Source: Bellilinea sp. (GTDB lineage: Bacteria; Chloroflexota; Anaerolineae; Anaerolineales; Anaerolineaceae). From it: DNA of 38,435 nt. Positions within the stretch are counted from its first letter, which is position 1. Each line of letters opens with the position of its first letter. The DNA lies in contig DATBWK010000099.1 of the NCBI GenBank assembly GCA_036514835.1, positions 1 through 38,435 of the forward strand, given 5' to 3'. Under the pieces are notes generated by a model that had not been told where the DNA came from, searched no databases, and saw only the letters and a program-made list of their open reading frames with translations. The translations under genes were made by a program, and so were the position numbers. Shown here piece by piece: positions 3,877 to 23,030 of the stretch.

Positions 3877-4045
3877 GGATGCCGGCCCGACCTTGCCTCC
3901 TTTCTAAAAATCACCCTTTAGAACAAAAATAGAAACCTGCTAGACTCGGACTCCGCCCGACTTAACAGATTTGCAAAGTGGCTTATCGGGAGCTTTGGCC
4001 CGCTCTGTGCATCCCTCTAGTGAAAATGGATTGCTGGAGGTAAAT

Positions 4046-4975
4046 ATGCTGCGGCTGCAGGAAGCGTTGGACATCTTCCTCGCAGCGATGGAGGGGATCG
4101 TCTCCCCTAAGACAATCGCTTTTTATGCTAAACGGCTGCCATCGCTGATTACGTTCCTGGGGGATATCCCAGCCGAGGAAATTGATATCGTGGATTTGCG
4201 CGCCTGGCGGGGGTTCCTGTCCAGACGACCGCTGCAATACACCCACCGGAAACCGCGATCTGTGAAAGATAATCATCTTTCCCCGAACACGGTCCACCAG
4301 TATGTGCGCTGCGTGCGGCGCCTGTTTCGCTGGCTTTTCCTGGAAGGATTGATCGCTTCTAACCCGGCGCAGCGGCTGGAACTGCCGGCGCTGCCAAATC
4401 CAAGGCCGCGGGGCATTCCGCTGGCCGATCTGGAGAAGCTATACGTTTCTGCAGAAACGGCCCGGGATCGGGCGATTGTGCTCTTCCTGGGGGATACGGC
4501 CGCCCGCGTGGGTGGCGTCGCCGGCCTGCAGCTGAAAGATTTGAATCTCTCACTGGGCCAGGCGATTGTTCACGAAAAAGGCCGCGGCGGAAATGGAAAA
4601 ACCCGCCCAGTCTTTTTCAATGAGCGTACCCGCCAGGCATTGGAGCTGTATCTGGCAGAGCGGCCGGATATACCCGGCTGCGAATCCGTTTTTGTACGGG
4701 AAAAATGCAACCGCTATAAACCCGGAGCTCTCACCACGGACGGCATTTACCAGGTACTGAAGCGCCTGGCCAGAAAAGCCGGAGTGAAAGCAAATTTCAA
4801 CCCGCACAGTTTCCGGCATGGATCCTTGCGCGGCATGCTGGAAGCCGGTATGCCGCTGCCGGATGTAAGCCAGATCGCTGGCCATTCGTCGGTTAAAGTA
4901 ACCGGTGATATTTATGGGGTCGTAAGCGATATGGTCCTCAGCCAGCGGCATCAAAAATACAGCTGGTTGAAGTAG
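4046..4975 (+). CDS. int: tyrosine recombinase/integrase
   Basis: Catalytic set TAARVG, KGRG, HSFRH, GHSS, DIY; GGAGG RBS before ATG 4046; next to attP-like site. Confidence 0.93.
   Translation: MLRLQEALDIFLAAMEGIVSPKTIAFYAKRLPSLITFLGDIPAEEIDIVDLRAWRGFLSRRPLQYTHRKPRSVKDNHLSPNTVHQYVRCVRRLFRWLFLEGLIASNPAQRLELPALPNPRPRGIPLADLEKLYVSAETARDRAIVLFLGDTAARVGGVAGLQLKDLNLSLGQAIVHEKGRGGNGKTRPVFFNERTRQALELYLAERPDIPGCESVFVREKCNRYKPGALTTDGIYQVLKRLARKAGVKANFNPHSFRHGSLRGMLEAGMPLPDVSQIAGHSSVKVTGDIYGVVSDMVLSQRHQKYSWLK
4444..4459. repeat. parS-like palindrome (perfect)
   Basis: CGTTTCTGCAGAAACG in int. Confidence 0.85.
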
Positions 4976-4984
4976 TTCTAAACC

Positions 4985-5032
4985 AGTGGCCTTTTAAGCC
5001 ATTGGTTAAGGGTTCGAGCCCCTTCGCGCTCA
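4985..5032 (+). other. attP core: 3' portion of tRNA-Lys(UUU), not a full tRNA
   Basis: Anticodon arm GTGGC-CTTTTAA-GCCAT, T arm AAGGG-TTCGAGC-CCCTT, acceptor 3' strand CGCGCTC-A; 5' acceptor strand and D arm absent. Confidence 0.85.
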
Positions 5033-9155: not shown

Positions 9156-9417
9156 GTGGAAGGCAAAAGCGGAGGCTAGATTTCGGGATGAAAATGGCCA
9201 TTTATTGGATCCTCCGATTCGGGTCATGATTGCCTACAATGGCCGGGCGAAGGGGAAGAAGAAGTGTGGCGATTGCAAGTTCTGCGTTTCCAAAGAGCAT
9301 CCGACCAAAGCCGGCCGGCATATTCTGGCCTGCACTGAAACCGATCAGAAAGATCGTTGGAATAAAGATTGGCCGGCCTGTGGCAAATTCACAACTCGAA
9401 AAGAGGAGATCAAATAA
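9118..9417 (+). CDS. Cys-motif hypothetical protein
   Basis: GGAGG RBS; CGDCKFC...C...WPACGKF. Confidence 0.6.
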   Translation: MEKTAEKIPSWAEWKAKAEARFRDENGHLLDPPIRVMIAYNGRAKGKKKCGDCKFCVSKEHPTKAGRHILACTETDQKDRWNKDWPACGKFTTRKEEIK

Positions 9418-11192
9418 TGACCCAAATTACCGAAACTGTCCGGCTGGTCCCGGTTGAGATCATCCAGGCCAACCCTTACCAGATGCGCGACTCGGAAGAC
9501 CCTGAGCACATCGCCAAACTGGCCGATTCGATTGCTCGGGATGGTTTGCTTCAGTATCCGCTGGCCAGACCGGGAGCCCATGGCGACCAGGTGGTACTGG
9601 CGTTTGGCCATTCCCGCCTGGCGGCTTATAAGCTGCTGAAGGAACGCAGCGATCGCGGTGAAATTATGTCTGGCGGCGACCTGACCGACCTGGCCAAGTA
9701 TCACCATATGCCGGTGATCGTGCGCGAGCTGAGTGATGAACAAATGTTCGTTTATGGCACCCAGGAAAACATTGCCCGCAAGAATCTGACCCCGGTGGAA
9801 GAGGCCAAGCTCATGCGCATTTACCGGGAGAAATTCGGCAAAACCAGCGCGGAGATCGGGCGGCTTTTTGGCATGAGTGAATCGGCGGTGCGAAACAAAA
9901 TGCGATTGGTCGATCTGCCTGAAGCGGCTATCGCCGGCCTGAATGAGGGCAAAATTACCGAGGTAGCAGCCAGGCGGTTGTTATCCCTGAACGATGTGAT
10001 CCCGACCCCTGTGATCAACGATCTGGCGAAGCACATTGCCACTACGGAATATTCCAAACCTGAACAGGTGGACAATTCGATCCGCACCGTTATTTTGGCG
10101 CAGAAGGAATCTATCCAGCTTTACGAGCCCTACAATCAAAGCAAGGACAAAGCACAAAATTTATTCATGCTGGACTGGCAGCCGGCCGAAACTTTACCTG
10201 CTCCCACCTACAAGCAATTCAAGCGATTCTTTCAGCAAGACCAGGAGCCGGTGACGATTCAGCTGCCGTCTGTGGAAGGACTGACACACATCAATGGCGG
10301 CATTTCGGTTGTTCAACCGAAAGAAATATTCGAGCATTTATACGTGGTATTTTTGCGTACGGAAGGAGAACAGCCCTCAACGGTTGGAAAACTGATAGCC
10401 GAAAAGGCGCCGGAAATGGCGAAGGCAATCAATCACCTGGCGCATCCGCCTGAGTGCAAAAAGTGCCCGTTCTTTGTGTCAGTTCAAAACGAGGGGATTT
10501 GCGGGCGGAAGATTTGCTTCGAGCGCAAACGCGATGCCTGGATAAAAATCGAACTGGCCCGCGTTTCTGCAGAAACGGGCATTGCCATTTATGATCCCGA
10601 GGTGGATGGAAAACTCTTCGAGGACGAAAACTGGGCTACTCGCGATCGGTTCAAAAAAATGTGGGAGGAGAAATCCCCAGATTTGCGCCTGAGAGGGCGT
10701 GTCTCCAAATGGGGACCGGATCAGCACACCCAATCCAGAGCGGTGGACGTGATCAGTATTTCCAAAGCCTCTATTGCCAGCCAAAGCAAGAATCAGAATA
10801 ATCTGGCATTCCAGCAGGAACGGGAACGGCTGCGCGAAGAACGAGAAAAACAAGAAAAAGAAAGGGTAGGCCGCGCCGCTAAATATTTAGATGCGGTCGC
10901 CTCGGAATTTGGCGGCTTTTTGTACAGTTCCCATAATGCGGGGACGCTCAATGTTTTGTGCCGGATAGGCCGCATTCGGCTGGAGGGCGAGTTTACCAAA
11001 GCTGATTGCTTGAACCGGCTGGGCCGTGATTTTGTCGGTACCCTGGTGGACTGGAGTATGCTCCGAGAAGGGCCGGCTGTCGTGGCAGACTATTTGATCG
11101 GCGTTGCGGCCGAAATGGGTATGAAGCCGAAGCTGGACCTGAAAGCGCTGGTCCAGGAGCTGGCAGAAGGAGCGCTGGCGCCGGCAGCGTAG
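9417..11192 (+). CDS. parB: ParB/Spo0J-family protein with long C-terminal extension
   Basis: NPYQMR..LADSI..GLLQ..GHSRLAA (GxxRxxA), ENIARKNLTPVEEA, HTH TSAEIGRLFGMSESAVRNKMRL; CKKCPF..CGRKIC in the extension. Confidence 0.88.
   Translation: MTQITETVRLVPVEIIQANPYQMRDSEDPEHIAKLADSIARDGLLQYPLARPGAHGDQVVLAFGHSRLAAYKLLKERSDRGEIMSGGDLTDLAKYHHMPVIVRELSDEQMFVYGTQENIARKNLTPVEEAKLMRIYREKFGKTSAEIGRLFGMSESAVRNKMRLVDLPEAAIAGLNEGKITEVAARRLLSLNDVIPTPVINDLAKHIATTEYSKPEQVDNSIRTVILAQKESIQLYEPYNQSKDKAQNLFMLDWQPAETLPAPTYKQFKRFFQQDQEPVTIQLPSVEGLTHINGGISVVQPKEIFEHLYVVFLRTEGEQPSTVGKLIAEKAPEMAKAINHLAHPPECKKCPFFVSVQNEGICGRKICFERKRDAWIKIELARVSAETGIAIYDPEVDGKLFEDENWATRDRFKKMWEEKSPDLRLRGRVSKWGPDQHTQSRAVDVISISKASIASQSKNQNNLAFQQERERLREEREKQEKERVGRAAKYLDAVASEFGGFLYSSHNAGTLNVLCRIGRIRLEGEFTKADCLNRLGRDFVGTLVDWSMLREGPAVVADYLIGVAAEMGMKPKLDLKALVQELAEGALAPAA
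10562..10577. repeat. parS-like palindrome (perfect)
   Basis: CGTTTCTGCAGAAACG in parB. Confidence 0.85.
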
Positions 11193-18415: not shown

Positions 18416-19324
18416 ATGGACATTCAGCGGTTCATCCGATACCGGGCACTCATTCCCCGTTATCCACAGGGCATTCGACGGGCCGAAATTGCCCGTCGTT
18501 TGGGCGTGAATCGTTCAACTGTTACCAGAGATTTAGCAAAGCTAGAAATTTGCGGGCTAAAAATCACCGAAGACACAGACGGTTTGATTAGTTTAATCGA
18601 AAGGAGCAATATGACAGTTTCAGATTACCTGGTTTGTGGGATGGGGTTACCGGCGATCGAAAGCCCACCGGTTCCGGTCCCGGAAAATACACGCTGTGCA
18701 CTGGAAGGGACGCCTATCACCACCGGATACTCGCTATGGGACATTATTCCAGATGCTGCTGGAGAATTCATCGAAATGCTGCACGGCAATCTATCCGGTT
18801 ATCTGTCCGAAAATGCGGCCAGGGCTTTCAAAGGCACCTGGAATATGGGTTCATGGCTAATTTTCGAAGATGGAACAGGTTTTCACCCATTGATTTCCCG
18901 AGAGGAGGCGGAAAAACAAGATCGTCCCTGCTGGTCAGACCTGGCGCGCCTGGTATGGCGCGAACGGCAGGGAACGGGCGTTTTGTGCATTCTAACAACC
19001 GATGTTAAAAAGCGCGTGTGGCCACGCGCCCGAGTGGATGTGTTGAGCGATGCCACGCTGGTTTATCTACATGACCCGGAGCAAAATTGTTCGGGAGTCA
19101 TATCACTGAATTGGGGCGAAATGCTCCAAATGCTTGATTTTTTGGAGAGCATATTGGCTAAAGGGTTCAATAAACCGACCCTGGGGCGAAACCTGCTCTC
19201 GGACATCAAAACCGCCATGATCGTTGGACTGCAACAGACCATCGACTGGGAAAAACGGTTGAGCGGCATGCGCCATCAGCCTGAATATCAATTTGCTTAT
19301 GTCATTTCACAGAGGAAAAAATGA
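18416..19324 (+). CDS. csf1: type IV Cas8-like Csf1 with in-frame N-terminal wHTH (alternative start 18611)
   Basis: HTH RRAEIARRLGVNRSTVTRDL; then degenerate Zn-finger region CALEG..TGY..EFIE and CILTTDVKKRVWPRARV; ATGA-coupled to csf2. Confidence 0.6.
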   Translation: MDIQRFIRYRALIPRYPQGIRRAEIARRLGVNRSTVTRDLAKLEICGLKITEDTDGLISLIERSNMTVSDYLVCGMGLPAIESPPVPVPENTRCALEGTPITTGYSLWDIIPDAAGEFIEMLHGNLSGYLSENAARAFKGTWNMGSWLIFEDGTGFHPLISREEAEKQDRPCWSDLARLVWRERQGTGVLCILTTDVKKRVWPRARVDVLSDATLVYLHDPEQNCSGVISLNWGEMLQMLDFLESILAKGFNKPTLGRNLLSDIKTAMIVGLQQTIDWEKRLSGMRHQPEYQFAYVISQRKK

Positions 19325-20718
19325 AACCAATTACGATCCAAGCCAATTTACTTTTAACTGCGCTGACTCCGATCAGCCATCACGATCCAGCCGTTCAGGA
19401 TGGATCCAATGTTTTGACCTTCAACCGCCAAAAACAGTTGATTGCTCAGTCTGGAGAACAGACTGCAATCGGCCCGGAAATCATCGAGCAATTCAGCTCG
19501 GCGCATCCGGTTCCGGCCGATCTGGCGCCTATTGTAGCGGATATGCCATTTGCGGAATTCGCTGCCTGCGCGCTAATCAAACTGCTGATCGACACCTACA
19601 ACAGTCAGGATGGAACCGGGTTGTTCTCGGGCATGGAGCGTTATAGCCTGTTGGAAAGCCGTGCTCGCACGGCTGCGGTCAAATCCTCCAATCTGCGTTC
19701 GTTCTGGTCCAATATCACCCGCGACCTGCAACTCCCGATTCAATTAGGGCGCGAGGATGAACTACTGATCGGATTCTTTGCTTTGCCAGGAGCGGCACAG
19801 TTTGCGGTGATCAACCAAATCGCCACGGAACACCGGACGATCATCACCGTGGCGCGAGTTTGGAGCGCAAAAGCCAAGATGCAAAACGAAGCTTATGCCC
19901 AGGCTGTTTCTCTACCGCTTGATGAAAGCGGATCACAAACTGCTAAACTCCGATCTCCGGAATTGGCTTCACTGCCAGCGTCGCTGGTACTGGATGTGCC
20001 GGCAGTCTCGGCCAACAGCCTGCGTCACCAGATCGTGCGTGAACCGGGTTGGCTGCATCTGTTCGGGGCGCTCGATCTGGCCGGGGAAACGCTGCCGGTG
20101 GAAGCCGAAGCGATCTTCTACAATGGCGGGAATATCCGCGCCGGTGCAAAACAGCCATCCGGCGCCTTTGCTCTGGCACGCAAAGCGCGCAAAAATTACC
20201 CGCTGCTCGATCTACTGGGCGGCGTATGCGATTCGTTCGATCTGGGCGAATCGCTGTTGTCCGTTTCTGCATGGCTGGTGTGCCGCGAAAATCATGCTGC
20301 GCTTTCCGGGATGGCCGCTGAGCTGTCTGGCGCTGCAGTAAGCGCATTCGATCTACTGGATGACATCACCCATACCCGCCAGGCTACCGAACAAGGAGCA
20401 GGGCAGATGATCTACAACTTCGAAGCGCTGGTACCGGGAGCGCAGTTTGTGGTGAGATTATCCCTCAAACCCTATGCCGATCAACTGGCGATCGGGGCGC
20501 TGGCGGCGGCACTGCAAACCTACCTGGACTGCCATCCAGTGATAGCCGGACAGTCAGCGCGTGGGTATGGCGTGGTTAGCGCGGGATGGCTAGAACGCCC
20601 GAACGAATTCGAACAGGCGCGCGATTTCTACGAAACCTACCTGGCTGAGAATCACGATCAACTGCGCAGATGGATTCTGGATGGCACGCTCGGAACGGGC
20701 GCAAAAGTAGTATCGTGA
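19321..20718 (+). CDS. csf2: type IV Cas7-family Csf2 with ~180-aa Cas11-like insertion
   Basis: RAMP motifs LTALTPISH, NVLTFNRQ, VPAVSANSLRH, FYNGG, PLLDLLGG, TRQ..GQMIYNFEALVPG, G-rich loop IAGQSARGYG. Confidence 0.85.
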   Translation: MKPITIQANLLLTALTPISHHDPAVQDGSNVLTFNRQKQLIAQSGEQTAIGPEIIEQFSSAHPVPADLAPIVADMPFAEFAACALIKLLIDTYNSQDGTGLFSGMERYSLLESRARTAAVKSSNLRSFWSNITRDLQLPIQLGREDELLIGFFALPGAAQFAVINQIATEHRTIITVARVWSAKAKMQNEAYAQAVSLPLDESGSQTAKLRSPELASLPASLVLDVPAVSANSLRHQIVREPGWLHLFGALDLAGETLPVEAEAIFYNGGNIRAGAKQPSGAFALARKARKNYPLLDLLGGVCDSFDLGESLLSVSAWLVCRENHAALSGMAAELSGAAVSAFDLLDDITHTRQATEQGAGQMIYNFEALVPGAQFVVRLSLKPYADQLAIGALAAALQTYLDCHPVIAGQSARGYGVVSAGWLERPNEFEQARDFYETYLAENHDQLRRWILDGTLGTGAKVVS

Positions 20719-21467
20719 GCCCTGAAGAAACTGCCTACCGAGCTTATGCTCTGCTGCCGATCTTCGAACGGCGCGTGGCGCAGGCAATGAATTGCATTCG
20801 ATATGCATACCAACTTTGTCGCGCGCCGTATGTTTCATTTTCGGCCGGGAAAGATTCATCAGTCATGCTGCATCTTATCCTATCCATAAAGCCGAATGCC
20901 ATAGTGCGGATTCTGACCGGCGGAGAGACCCGCCTGCTGCATCGCGACATCGATGGTGTTTTGGATTGGTGGCGCTCTGGGTATCCGAAGATGGATTTTG
21001 CCGAAATTCAGGTAGATCATGTTTTTTCGCCCGGGTGGGAAGACAAAACATTCTACGAGCAATACCAGACCTTTCAAAATGAATGGGAAAAATATCTTCA
21101 TGCGGCTGGTGACTGGGATGGCTGCTTCATCGGATTGCGGGCAGAGGAATCGGCCATCCGCAGAGCCTGGCTGCGGGAGCGAATGGAAGGGCATGCCATC
21201 CGCCAATATCGTGCCGGCAGCAAAGCCGGTGTTTATCGCATCTGCCCGCTGGCAGACTGGCGCGAGGAAGATATTGGAGCATATATCATCAAACATCAGA
21301 TCCCGCTACTGGCTGGTTACGAAAAAGGGTTCTCTGCGCGCACCAAGACGAGAATGGGAGGACGGGCGATGATCGCCTTTGGACAATTGGCCGAGCTGCG
21401 CGAACGCGACCCGGAAAATTACCAAAAACTGATCGAGCGTTTCCCAGAATTGACGAGATGGACATGA
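20715..21467 (+). CDS. cysH: CysH-like PAPS-reductase-family (PP-loop) protein associated with type IV-B
   Basis: YVSFSAGKDS, FIGLRAEES..R, CPLADWREEDIGAYI; GTGA-coupled to csf2. Confidence 0.85.
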   Translation: MSPEETAYRAYALLPIFERRVAQAMNCIRYAYQLCRAPYVSFSAGKDSSVMLHLILSIKPNAIVRILTGGETRLLHRDIDGVLDWWRSGYPKMDFAEIQVDHVFSPGWEDKTFYEQYQTFQNEWEKYLHAAGDWDGCFIGLRAEESAIRRAWLRERMEGHAIRQYRAGSKAGVYRICPLADWREEDIGAYIIKHQIPLLAGYEKGFSARTKTRMGGRAMIAFGQLAELRERDPENYQKLIERFPELTRWT

Positions 21468-21488: not shown

Positions 21489-22223
21489 ATGATTAACCTT
21501 CCTGAATTCGAAGCGTTTACCCGTGAATTTGGAGCGCTGGAAATGCGCCCGCTGGTGGTGCGAGCTGTACTAAAACCCAATTCTCCGGTGATTTCCTATC
21601 ATCCACCGCCTTATCTGGACAACCTATTGGCACGCTCGGTAGTGGATCGGGCAACTGGCGGCAATGGACTGCCGGACACTCCAGAAGCCTACTGGCTGCC
21701 GCTGCCGCTCAAAATGGTCTGGTTATCGCCAGAAGGATTGCCGCTGTGGGATAGTTCTGTTTTTGAACCGATCGGCATAAATATTTCAGACACCGTATAT
21801 TCGCATAAACGACCGCCAAAAGCGCTGTTCAGCGAGGCCAGGTCGATCAAATTCAATACCGGGCGGTGGATGGAACGTCGTCTGCCGATGCCTGTGGCGA
21901 TAGCGCCGGGCTGGGAGGCGCGCTGCATCGGAAATATTGAAGCGATCCTGGATTTGCTAAAAGATATTGCATTTCTGGGAAAGCGGCGGTCCATTGGCAT
22001 GGGAGAGATTGACGAATGGATTGTTGCGCCGGCCGAGTTCGAGACCGCGCTGATCAGTGACGGTTATCTGGCGCATGGTATACCGGAGGGCAGCGGGATC
22101 GAATGCGATATGCCGACCAGCCCAGTGGGATGGACGCCGCCGCAATGGAAGGTGAGCCTTCATTCTCCCGGGTGGCCGGTTGGGACAATGCGCAGAGTGG
22201 ATTGGTACGAGGAAGCGGTATGA
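21489..22223 (+). CDS. csf3: type IV Cas5-family Csf3
   Basis: PLVVRAVL..LDNLLA..LPLPL..W..S..KR..GRW..RRLP..IGNIEAILDLL..LGKRRSIGMGEIDEW..PPQW. Confidence 0.85.
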   Translation: MINLPEFEAFTREFGALEMRPLVVRAVLKPNSPVISYHPPPYLDNLLARSVVDRATGGNGLPDTPEAYWLPLPLKMVWLSPEGLPLWDSSVFEPIGINISDTVYSHKRPPKALFSEARSIKFNTGRWMERRLPMPVAIAPGWEARCIGNIEAILDLLKDIAFLGKRRSIGMGEIDEWIVAPAEFETALISDGYLAHGIPEGSGIECDMPTSPVGWTPPQWKVSLHSPGWPVGTMRRVDWYEEAV

Positions 22224-22224
22224 T

Positions 22225-22250
22225 AAAAAGCCCGCCGGTCAGGGCGGGCT
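22225..22250 (-). terminator. intrinsic terminator between convergent operons
   Basis: AGCCCGCC-N6-GGCGGGCT with T tract on the minus strand. Confidence 0.75.
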
Positions 22251-22270: not shown

Positions 22271-22606
22271 CTACTTTATTTTCCGCGGCGCTCCCCCCTT
22301 GCGCCCATTTATGCGGGATTGAGCTGCCTTTTTTGGCGTGCGGATGGAGCCGAGGGCTGCGGCAGCTTCGGATGCGTGCATGTTCTGTTCCCGCGCGAAC
22401 TGGATATCATCCAAATTAACGAGCAAGCCATTTTGATCTAAGATGCGATAGTTATGCGCCCATGTGCCACTCCCGCCGCTGGTTTGTGATCGGTTTGTGT
22501 CCATAGCGCGAACGGCCGCACGCAGTGAGGCGTATGTTCCAAAGAGTTTGAAGGCACTATCGGGTGCAATTACATGTGCAGAATCAGTTCGTTCTAGAGT
22601 AAACAT
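22271..22606 (-). CDS. small protein with basic putative DNA-binding tail
   Basis: AGGAG RBS; C-terminal AAAALGSIRTPKKAAQSRINGRKGGAPRK. Confidence 0.7.
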   Translation of the reverse strand: MFTLERTDSAHVIAPDSAFKLFGTYASLRAAVRAMDTNRSQTSGGSGTWAHNYRILDQNGLLVNLDDIQFAREQNMHASEAAAALGSIRTPKKAAQSRINGRKGGAPRKIK

Positions 22607-22615
22607 GTCAGTCTC

Positions 22616-22831
22616 CTATGCACAGTCATCACAAATTTTGTTTTGGCCCTGTGTGAAACGGGCCCCATCGAAGTTTTTTGATGCGCCGCAGCGCTTGCAA
22701 ACGATATCTGTGTCGTGCATCCGCTGGATGCGTTCGATATCTTCGACTGTTGGGATGATCGGCAGGCTCTGGTCATTATTGATCCCGCCGATCCCCAATC
22801 CGCTGTCCGAGTCGTATGTGTGATCGATCAT
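22616..22831 (-). CDS. small acidic Zn-finger protein
   Basis: CKRC...CDDC; tightly packed in operon. Confidence 0.65.
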   Translation of the reverse strand: MIDHTYDSDSGLGIGGINNDQSLPIIPTVEDIERIQRMHDTDIVCKRCGASKNFDGARFTQGQNKICDDCA

Positions 22832-22832
22832 C

Positions 22833-23030
22833 TTATTCCATCCCGTGAGTGGCGTTATAGGCTTCTTCTTCGGCTTCCCGGAGGGTTGCGAAACCTCGGA
22901 TTTTTTCGGCCCAACTGCGCTCCGCTTTTTCGGCGGTCAGAACGAAGTAACCCTTGCTTTTGCTGTACATGACGAAGAAATTTTTCTCAGTGCTGGACTT
23001 GCTGGTGGTGTTTCCGGTTGTGTCTGTCAT
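22833..23030 (-). CDS. small hypothetical protein
   Basis: GGAG RBS; first gene after a strong promoter. Confidence 0.65.
   Translation of the reverse strand: MTDTTGNTTSKSSTEKNFFVMYSKSKGYFVLTAEKAERSWAEKIRGFATLREAEEEAYNATHGME

Follow-up and report, generated by a model that had tools for sequence, protein, structure and literature searches.

Among class 1 effectors type IV-B is the one least understood, and the locus described here raises the question of where the Cas11 subunit of such an effector resides when its operon contains no visible cas11 gene. The function of type IV-B is still called unclear in the accessible text of papers from 2025-2026 (PMC12669027; PMC13676074). The window, by which we mean the whole stretch of DNA that was analysed, is the entire 38,435-nt contig C99 of a host assembly of 2.59 Mb that is 87.9% complete. 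It carries a four-gene, same-strand operon, csf1-csf2-cysH-csf3, in which the first and second junctions overlap by 4 nt and no nuclease is encoded:

18416..19324, + strand: csf1, Cas8-like large subunit, with an HTH at aa 1-65 (Pfam PF08279, E 9e-6)
19321..20718, + strand: csf2/cas7 with nested Cas11, 465 aa (PADLOC typeIV_Cas7, E 6e-30)
20715..21467, + strand: cysH-like PP-loop protein (Pfam PAPS_reduct, E 5e-15)
21489..22223, + strand: csf3/cas5 (PADLOC typeIV_Cas5, E 3e-24; TIGR03116, E 1e-7, under its cutoff)
22229..22250, no strand assigned: GC-rich hairpin directly 3' of csf3, terminator-like on the minus strand by consensus match only

The cysH-like gene starts with a GTG that overlaps the csf2 stop, with an alternative ATG at 20670, and the terminator-like count in the hairpin region was no higher than in shuffles.

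The csf2 reading frame (19321-20718, + strand) translates to a 465-aa protein that is a type IV Csf2 by PADLOC and by structural Z score. The original prediction held that two Csf2 motifs, which lie about ten residues apart in typical proteins, are separated by some 180 aa in this one, and both parts of that statement proved correct: NVLTFNRQKQLI occupies aa 30-41, VPAVSANSLRH begins at V226, and the Arg-Pro spacing is 191 residues (R36-P227), against 14 in 7JHY Csf2 (Arg49-Pro63) and ~13 in the Csf2s of a sister IV-B clade, which are 280-281 aa long. The protein is divided as follows:

19321..19443, + strand: N-terminal Cas7 piece, aa 1-41, aligning to 7JHY Csf2 residues 19-53 and to the sister Csf2 N-terminus
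19444..19983, + strand: insert of linker, Cas11 domain and linker, aa 42-221, delimited by alignment, insert folding and structural match
19486..19890, + strand: Cas11 (Csf4) fold proper, aa 56-190, delimited by structural match to 7jhy_h and by HHalign to sister Cas11
19984..20715, + strand: C-terminal Cas7 body, aa 222-465, with VPAVSANSLRH, NGGN, thumb and G-rich loop

The N-terminal piece comprises the first RRM strand, a loop with invariant H20, D22 and N30, and the first hairpin strand. In a profile of 119 homologues, aa 9-43 align with 7JHY Csf2 residues 19-53 and the alignment resumes at residue 56, with ~177 extra residues at the beta-hairpin tip, after the first strand of the Cas7 fold. 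With the first Cas7 strand before the insert and the Cas7 body after it, and with 7JHY and sister Csf2 matched on both sides, the proposed domain insertion within Cas7 was borne out. An end-to-end fusion of an N-terminal Cas11 to Cas7 was also considered and is ruled out, because the first Cas7 strand precedes the insert. The homologues come from a search that returned 257 proteins at E<=0.001, from the best 120 of which 119 were aligned and one 378-aa partial sequence was omitted; the insertion site carries 167-207 aa in 119/119, so that the insert is neither chance nor misassembly. The homologues share 56-60% identity with the window protein in the Cas7 parts, 45% over aa 76-195 and 10-25% in the two flanks, with 10% over aa 196-221.

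The AF2 model of the full chain (pLDDT 93, pTM 0.87) and structural comparison reveal one Cas7 domain only within the 465 aa, and the pTM suggests a defined docking of the insert. The closest structures of the full chain are type IV Csf2 (Z 20.0 for 8rc3, Z 17.8 for 7jhy_e), versus Z 11.2-12.5 for III-E chains against the Cas7 part; the insert being closest to IV-B Cas11 as well, the claim that this protein is unrelated to type III-E Cas7-11 is supported. The TIGR03115 match of the window Csf2 lies under its cutoff, as expected for a split match. A two-copy complex prediction of the window protein scored 0.00 and was weighed neither way.

The insert in the window Csf2 is a IV-B Cas11 (Csf4) domain. 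Folded alone it is helical, as predicted, with pLDDT 88. Among 48,161 chains its best structural match is 7jhy_h, the Cas11 of 7JHY (Z 11.0, rmsd 3.1 A, 126/143 residues), which is the sole chain at Z 8 or more and is followed by a runner-up at Z 5.0; the structural aligner cautions that Z below ~13 can be generic for helical bundles. Foldseek also ranked 7JHY Cas11 first for the insert, with prob 0.93 and a non-significant E of 0.19. A profile of the full-length protein matched three of 177,635 PDB sequences, namely 7JHY Csf2, IV-C Cas7c and 7JHY Cas11; phmmer of the window protein against PDB gave 0 matches, and Pfam named neither Csf2 nor the insert in it. When 51 inserts were compared with 5,027 PADLOC models, typeIV_Cas11 accounted for 7/10 matched families, including the top six, and the top typeIV_Cas11 family matched 23/51 inserts (best E 4e-9); the window insert by itself gave E 0.007-0.02 against Cas11 profiles.

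A profile of the insert found 219 matches among 1.84 billion proteins. Among the best 150 of these, 91 are >=400 aa and 48 are <=200 aa. All 91 long matches listed have a Cas7 core after the insert, and 77/91 have the N-terminal Cas7 piece before it. Five of the 48 listed short matches are fragments of nested genes; 37/42 short proteins checked match typeIV_Cas11, and a profile of 39 short proteins matches 7JHY Cas11 at E 8.7e-6. The same profile, made of stand-alone Cas11 proteins of the sister clade, matches the insert with HHalign 100%, E 1.8e-42. Eight proteins of a different IV-B Cas11 subfamily gave no match to the insert (HHalign 0.3%, E 0.17), in line with the high divergence among Cas11 families. 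The proposed resemblance to IV-B Cas11 is thus confirmed by Z and by HHalign, and the identity claimed for aa 42-221 holds; their extent as Cas11 does not, as the fold is limited to aa 56-190 and the rest consists of long, variable linkers (aa 42-55, 14 aa; aa 191-221, 31 aa). That the insert is instead an unrelated helical domain, an intein-like element or an assembly chimera merely resembling Cas11 is extremely improbable: the weak single-sequence E-values, the helical fold and the one unmatched Cas11 subfamily would agree with such an origin, but 55 distinct loci and 119/119 aligned homologues contain the insert, Pfam gave no intein match for this all-helical domain, and the insert matches, at the E-value of 1.8e-42 just given, stand-alone proteins that occupy the cas11 position of sister operons.

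The prediction that no separate cas11 gene accompanies this csf2 was upheld in the window and beyond it. No stand-alone cas11 was found in the 38,435 nt, the 4-nt csf1/csf2 overlap leaves no room between these two for a further gene, and in the rest of the assembly the sister-Cas11 profile matched the csf2 gene and nothing else. Among the loci collected, 71 entries carry the nested gene, 55 of them distinct by insert peptide. In 48/49 distinct loci with a csf1 end the insert starts <=322 nt from the csf1 stop, which is too close for another cas11, the exception being an interrupted nested gene. The same profiles find stand-alone cas11 in 14 un-nested loci, 9 by construction, and the sole extra Cas11-like ORF in nested loci is the 5' half of an interrupted nested gene, in L074. 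None of the intact nested loci in this set has a separate cas11, and the expected correlation between the insert and loss of the stand-alone gene was thus found across homologues. In L074 (4298-7095) the nested csf2 is broken within the Cas11 domain by a 413-aa ORF of transposase-like look that gave no Pfam or PADLOC match. Among 38 four-gene loci (duplicates counted), the order is csf1-csf2-cysH-csf3 in 31 and csf1-csf2-csf3-cysH in 7.

The sister clade suggests how this architecture may have arisen. Its five stand-alone loci (L089-L093), all viral, have a homologous Cas11 gene between csf1 and an insert-free csf2 (5/5), and its insert-free short Csf2 family has 316 matches. These loci resemble the window in their homologous Cas11 and Csf1, in belonging to the nearest Cas7 clade and in lying on viral contigs, and differ from it in the arrangement csf1-cas11-csf2(280 aa)-csf3-(cysH) and in a Csf1 with both CxxC motifs. 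In a Cas7 tree of 48 hand-picked rows (LG+G4, C-terminal Cas7 stretch only), nested and sister Cas7 fall together in a single clade (100/100), within which the window groups with L008. The 21 nested rows make up one side of a weak branch (85/34), so that monophyly of the nested clade versus the sister is weakly supported and two insertions or a reversal are possible; since none of the outgroups is nested, it is more parsimonious to assume that the neighbouring cas11 was inserted.

A second Cas7 family (L078:865-2160; P0271-P0274), of 408-431 aa, carries a shorter insert in the same hairpin loop, and this insert is also Cas11 (HHalign 93% to sister Cas11; PADLOC Cas11 E down to 3e-17). The family clusters with other short Cas7s (99/98); a tree uniting both nested families is rejected with a p-AU of 2.3e-5, a value somewhat weakened by the fact that the group of nested and second-lineage sequences was named after the first tree had been seen. 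A search of viral contigs gave no locus of the second lineage, which leaves a single 2.8-kb contig as the source of its gene context. From these comparisons of sequence, nesting of Cas11 in the Cas7 hairpin likely arose at least two times independently. Very probably, the nested gene goes back to a sister-like ancestor whose upstream cas11 became inserted, in frame, in the hairpin, and a separate event of this kind took place in an unrelated IV-B lineage. What is new here is the un-nested sister clade as likely donor, together with the second, apparently independent nesting. Independent nesting at one loop would point to a place in Cas7 that tolerates insertions, and to convergence in subunit fusion beyond type III; for the role of Cas11, the un-nested sister clade offers a matched, ready control.

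The nested Cas7-Cas11 is a variant of type IV-B in its architecture rather than a new system, and as far as the tests show, IV-B function is unchanged by nesting. It is a variant in that canonical IV-B has a cas11 gene between csf1 and csf2, which is not so in the window. The IV-B system of Mycobacterium sp. JS623 (7JHY), as presented in the accessible text of PMC7937560, resembles the window in its Csf1, Csf2, Csf3, Cas11 fold and cysH-like gene, and in having no array or cas6; both window domains match 7JHY chains best among IV-B entries. It differs in having a separate Cas11 gene and a 6:5 rather than a predicted n:n stoichiometry, and in its location on a megaplasmid rather than a temperate phage. 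The window, in contrast, has cysH between csf2 and csf3, and Ser/Asn, not Asp, aligns with the putative catalytic Asp42 of JS623 (D42 falls opposite S29 or N30, the latter being N in 119/119). In RNase Cas7 proteins of the Csm3 type the catalytic Asp lies in the loop that follows the first strand. Nearby, D22 is invariant in the 119 aligned homologues, and D27 is Asp in 98/119.

Other systems join or pair these subunits in different ways. According to the available text of PMC12669027, III-E Cas7-11 and III-I Cas7-11i likewise hold Cas7 and Cas11 domains in one chain, but comprise several Cas7 domains with one Cas11 and are III-D-derived, whereas the window protein has one type IV Cas7 with a nested IV-B Cas11, and its chain would be a repeating unit. 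The IV-C effector (PMC13676074; PDB 11FS) is alike in the weak profile matches to Cas7c and Cas11c and in its Cas7-Cas11 pairs along the guide; in the portions of that paper available to us it has a Cas10 with an HD nuclease, crRNA use, separate subunits and no CysH. The Csf1-Csf3 fusion of IV-E (PMC7038947, accessible text) and type I Cas8-Cas11 fusions also join neighbouring effector subunits, different from those joined here. In the accessible portions of the fusion literature, which report Csf1-Csf3, Cas8-Cas11, nuclease-Cas11 and multi-Cas7 III-E/III-I fusions (PMC8175902, PMC7038947, PMC12669027, PMC13676074; also PMC10910872, PMC10848311, PMC11656645 and bioRxiv 10.1101/2023.08.02.551345), none describes Cas11 inside Csf2. 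Nor did any title or abstract opening returned from the full-text literature searched, a body of text outside which most subscription papers lie, describe Cas11 nested in Csf2, and the impression that this architecture lacked a known description has held to that extent.

We consider with good confidence that the whole is best explained by a IV-B Csf2/Cas7 that carries an entire Cas11 in its first beta-hairpin and likely polymerises on small RNA, each subunit bringing its own Cas11. The 7JHY complex, according to the available text, has an RNA-bound backbone of six Csf2, with five Cas11 placed at the Csf2-Csf2 interfaces (PMC7937560). By analogy, the nested chain would probably build a double filament of the 7JHY type, in which Cas7 lines the RNA as the backbone and Cas11 forms the belly, at n:n, not 6:5, and which Csf3 and Csf1 would cap; one extra Cas11 would be left at an end. 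Conserved Cas7 motifs, the Cas11 core, long variable linkers and the high pTM together suggest the same double filament from one chain. The 1:1 Cas7:Cas11 ratio of the original prediction follows from covalent linkage and, in the predicted assembly, would be a small change from 6:5 in 7JHY and from the 7:6 given for IV-C in the accessible part of PMC13676074.

The nested Cas11 might alternatively have been repurposed, its double tether barring the belly position or sliding and creating a new interaction surface or a lock. The IV-C Cas11 slides along the Cas7 backbone on target binding, in the available text of PMC13676074, which a double tether could restrict, and aa 52-73 of the insert are an extra N-terminal helical segment relative to sister Cas11. 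We nevertheless hold repurposing to be quite unlikely: the insert core retains the sister Cas11 motifs DGxGLFSGxxRY, W and AR, the linkers of 14 and 31 aa are long and variable, and the choice of the same loop by two lineages fits proximity to the normal docking site. For a 7JHY-type filament built from nested chains, the main value of nesting would lie in streamlining and in guaranteed co-assembly from one phage transcript. It is unlikely, in our estimate, that nesting is a selected, recurrent phage invention in which the single-chain unit has new behaviour, for example as a locked, length-unconstrained RNA/DNA-coating filament that delivers CysH late in infection; if true, a locked single-chain filament would set this IV-B variant apart in function and offer a minimal chassis for learning the role of IV-B. 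A natural single-chain Cas7-Cas11 unit also removes one variable from reconstitution, and nesting does not by itself reveal guide, target or activity.

The predicted Csf1 cap has features of its own. Csf1 proper aligns starting at ATG 18611. The window Csf1 has no direct PADLOC Csf1 match, and 8/10 aligned Csf1 homologues match PADLOC typeIV_Cas8 (E 1e-9 to 4e-3); by homology through these relatives, 18416..19324 is assigned as a type IV Csf1 large subunit. The window Csf1 (18611-19324) retains 1/4 zinc-finger Cys, as do those of L003, L007, L008 and L009, and both CxxC motifs are retained in Csf1 of L013, L027, L072 and of the sister clade. With this zinc finger lost, capping in the window system may differ from that of canonical IV-B. 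Nested systems can be missed when typing is gene-based, since they show no cas11 gene, the profiles overlook their csf1 and their csf2 scores under the NCBIfam cutoff. An HTH is fused to the front of Csf1 (18416-18610), as also in L002 and L032, and a related small stand-alone HTH gene lies inside or beside the operon in L009, L014/L036, L033, L035, L046 and L085; the Csf1-linked HTH is possibly an autoregulator.

The window contig reads, from its gene content, as a near-complete temperate tailed phage, with annotated repressor, replication initiator, ParB-like protein, endolysin, terminase, portal, protease, major capsid and tape measure genes, and with these two features:

3971-4975: integrase
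9369-11192: ParB-domain protein

Beside the integrase, 4984-5032 is identical in 49/49 nt to part of the tRNA-Lys(TTT) gene on host contig C126; this is likely attP and ties the phage to the host assembly. The Csf operon lies in the head module, with the portal region on one side and the protease on the other. Terminase, portal, capsid, holin or integrase genes flank several nested loci, close relatives make up 15/21 viral-contig loci, and a Chloroflexota label is found on 4/6 genome contigs. By tblastn, matches were found in 0/50,697 GenBank phage records and in 2/72,556 plasmids, where they are confined to the C-terminal half, and the sister-Cas11 profile matched 0/400 other genomes of the host phylum. 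Common neighbours of nested operons (L001, L004, L007, L009, L011, L048, L072) are DNA methylases, a second PAPS-reductase-like gene, a SNF2 helicase and a glycosyltransferase, hinting at a nucleic-acid-modification context.

What the complex does for the phage is approached through its CysH-like protein and its guide. The protein has SAGKDS, the PP-motif, at aa 43-48 and no Cys beyond aa 177, and thus fits the CasCysH pattern of a PP-motif without the catalytic C-terminal Cys, proposed in the accessible text of PMC8175902 to mean ATP-dependent adenylation. Repeat and mini-array scans found no CRISPR array in the window, and cas6, dinG and adaptation genes were absent among its 48 ORFs (PHROGs) and the 5 operon queries (PADLOC). 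A simple repeat scan of the host assembly (87.9% complete) gave no CRISPR array, its lone match having 3 copies at 67-nt spacing. In the search for a guide RNA, the sole Rfam match in the window was a tRNA fragment, and by blastn the window and its relatives have no conserved non-coding stretch in common. In nested L031 (401-1182), a 13-repeat CRISPR-like array with a ~28-nt repeat and spacers of 25-39 nt lies 1.8 kb upstream of the operon and is a candidate guide source; its 12 spacers had no match to the collected loci or the host assembly. A cas6 gene directly follows csf3 in nested L026 (6706-7572) and in sister L090 (7726-8409), and cas6-like-looking candidates occur in L016, L083, L020 and L087.

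We tentatively favour, as a possibility drawn by analogy, a non-nuclease RNP that would direct the CysH-like PP-loop enzyme to adenylate bound nucleic acid and so aid the phage, either by counter-defence or in its conflicts with other mobile elements. We prefer it to the idea, which we regard as rather doubtful, that the complex is a passive sponge for RNA or a scavenger of crRNA and thereby weakens the host's RNA-guided defence, CysH being an accessory and the nested Cas11 simply stabilising the filament. A sponge would suit a phage-borne module without array or cas6, as well as the array of nested L031 and the cas6 of nested L026; the RNA on which the JS623 IV-B complex assembled was heterogeneous, and the idea of a sponge appears in the available text of PMC7937560, PMC8175902 and PMC7038947. 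However, no CRISPR array was found in the host assembly by the simple repeat scan, and a sponge leaves the recurrence of cysH in the operon, seen in the 38 four-gene loci counted above, unexplained.

Several further features of the phage were observed. A perfect 16-bp palindrome, CGTTTCTGCAGAAACG, has six copies in the phage (4444, 10562, 13318, 16902, 26489, 34853) and 0 in the other 2.55 Mb of the assembly, with variants near 362 and 28860; it is a candidate parS-like site, and the phage has a ParB-domain protein. A tandem repeat of 18-nt period (1378-1532) lies within a 171-aa minus-strand ORF (1146-1661). On the minus strand at 22271-23030, three small ORFs that gave no match in Pfam run counter to the head module and are possibly lysogen-expressed accessory genes; a sigma-70-like promoter match accompanies them at 23088-23060.
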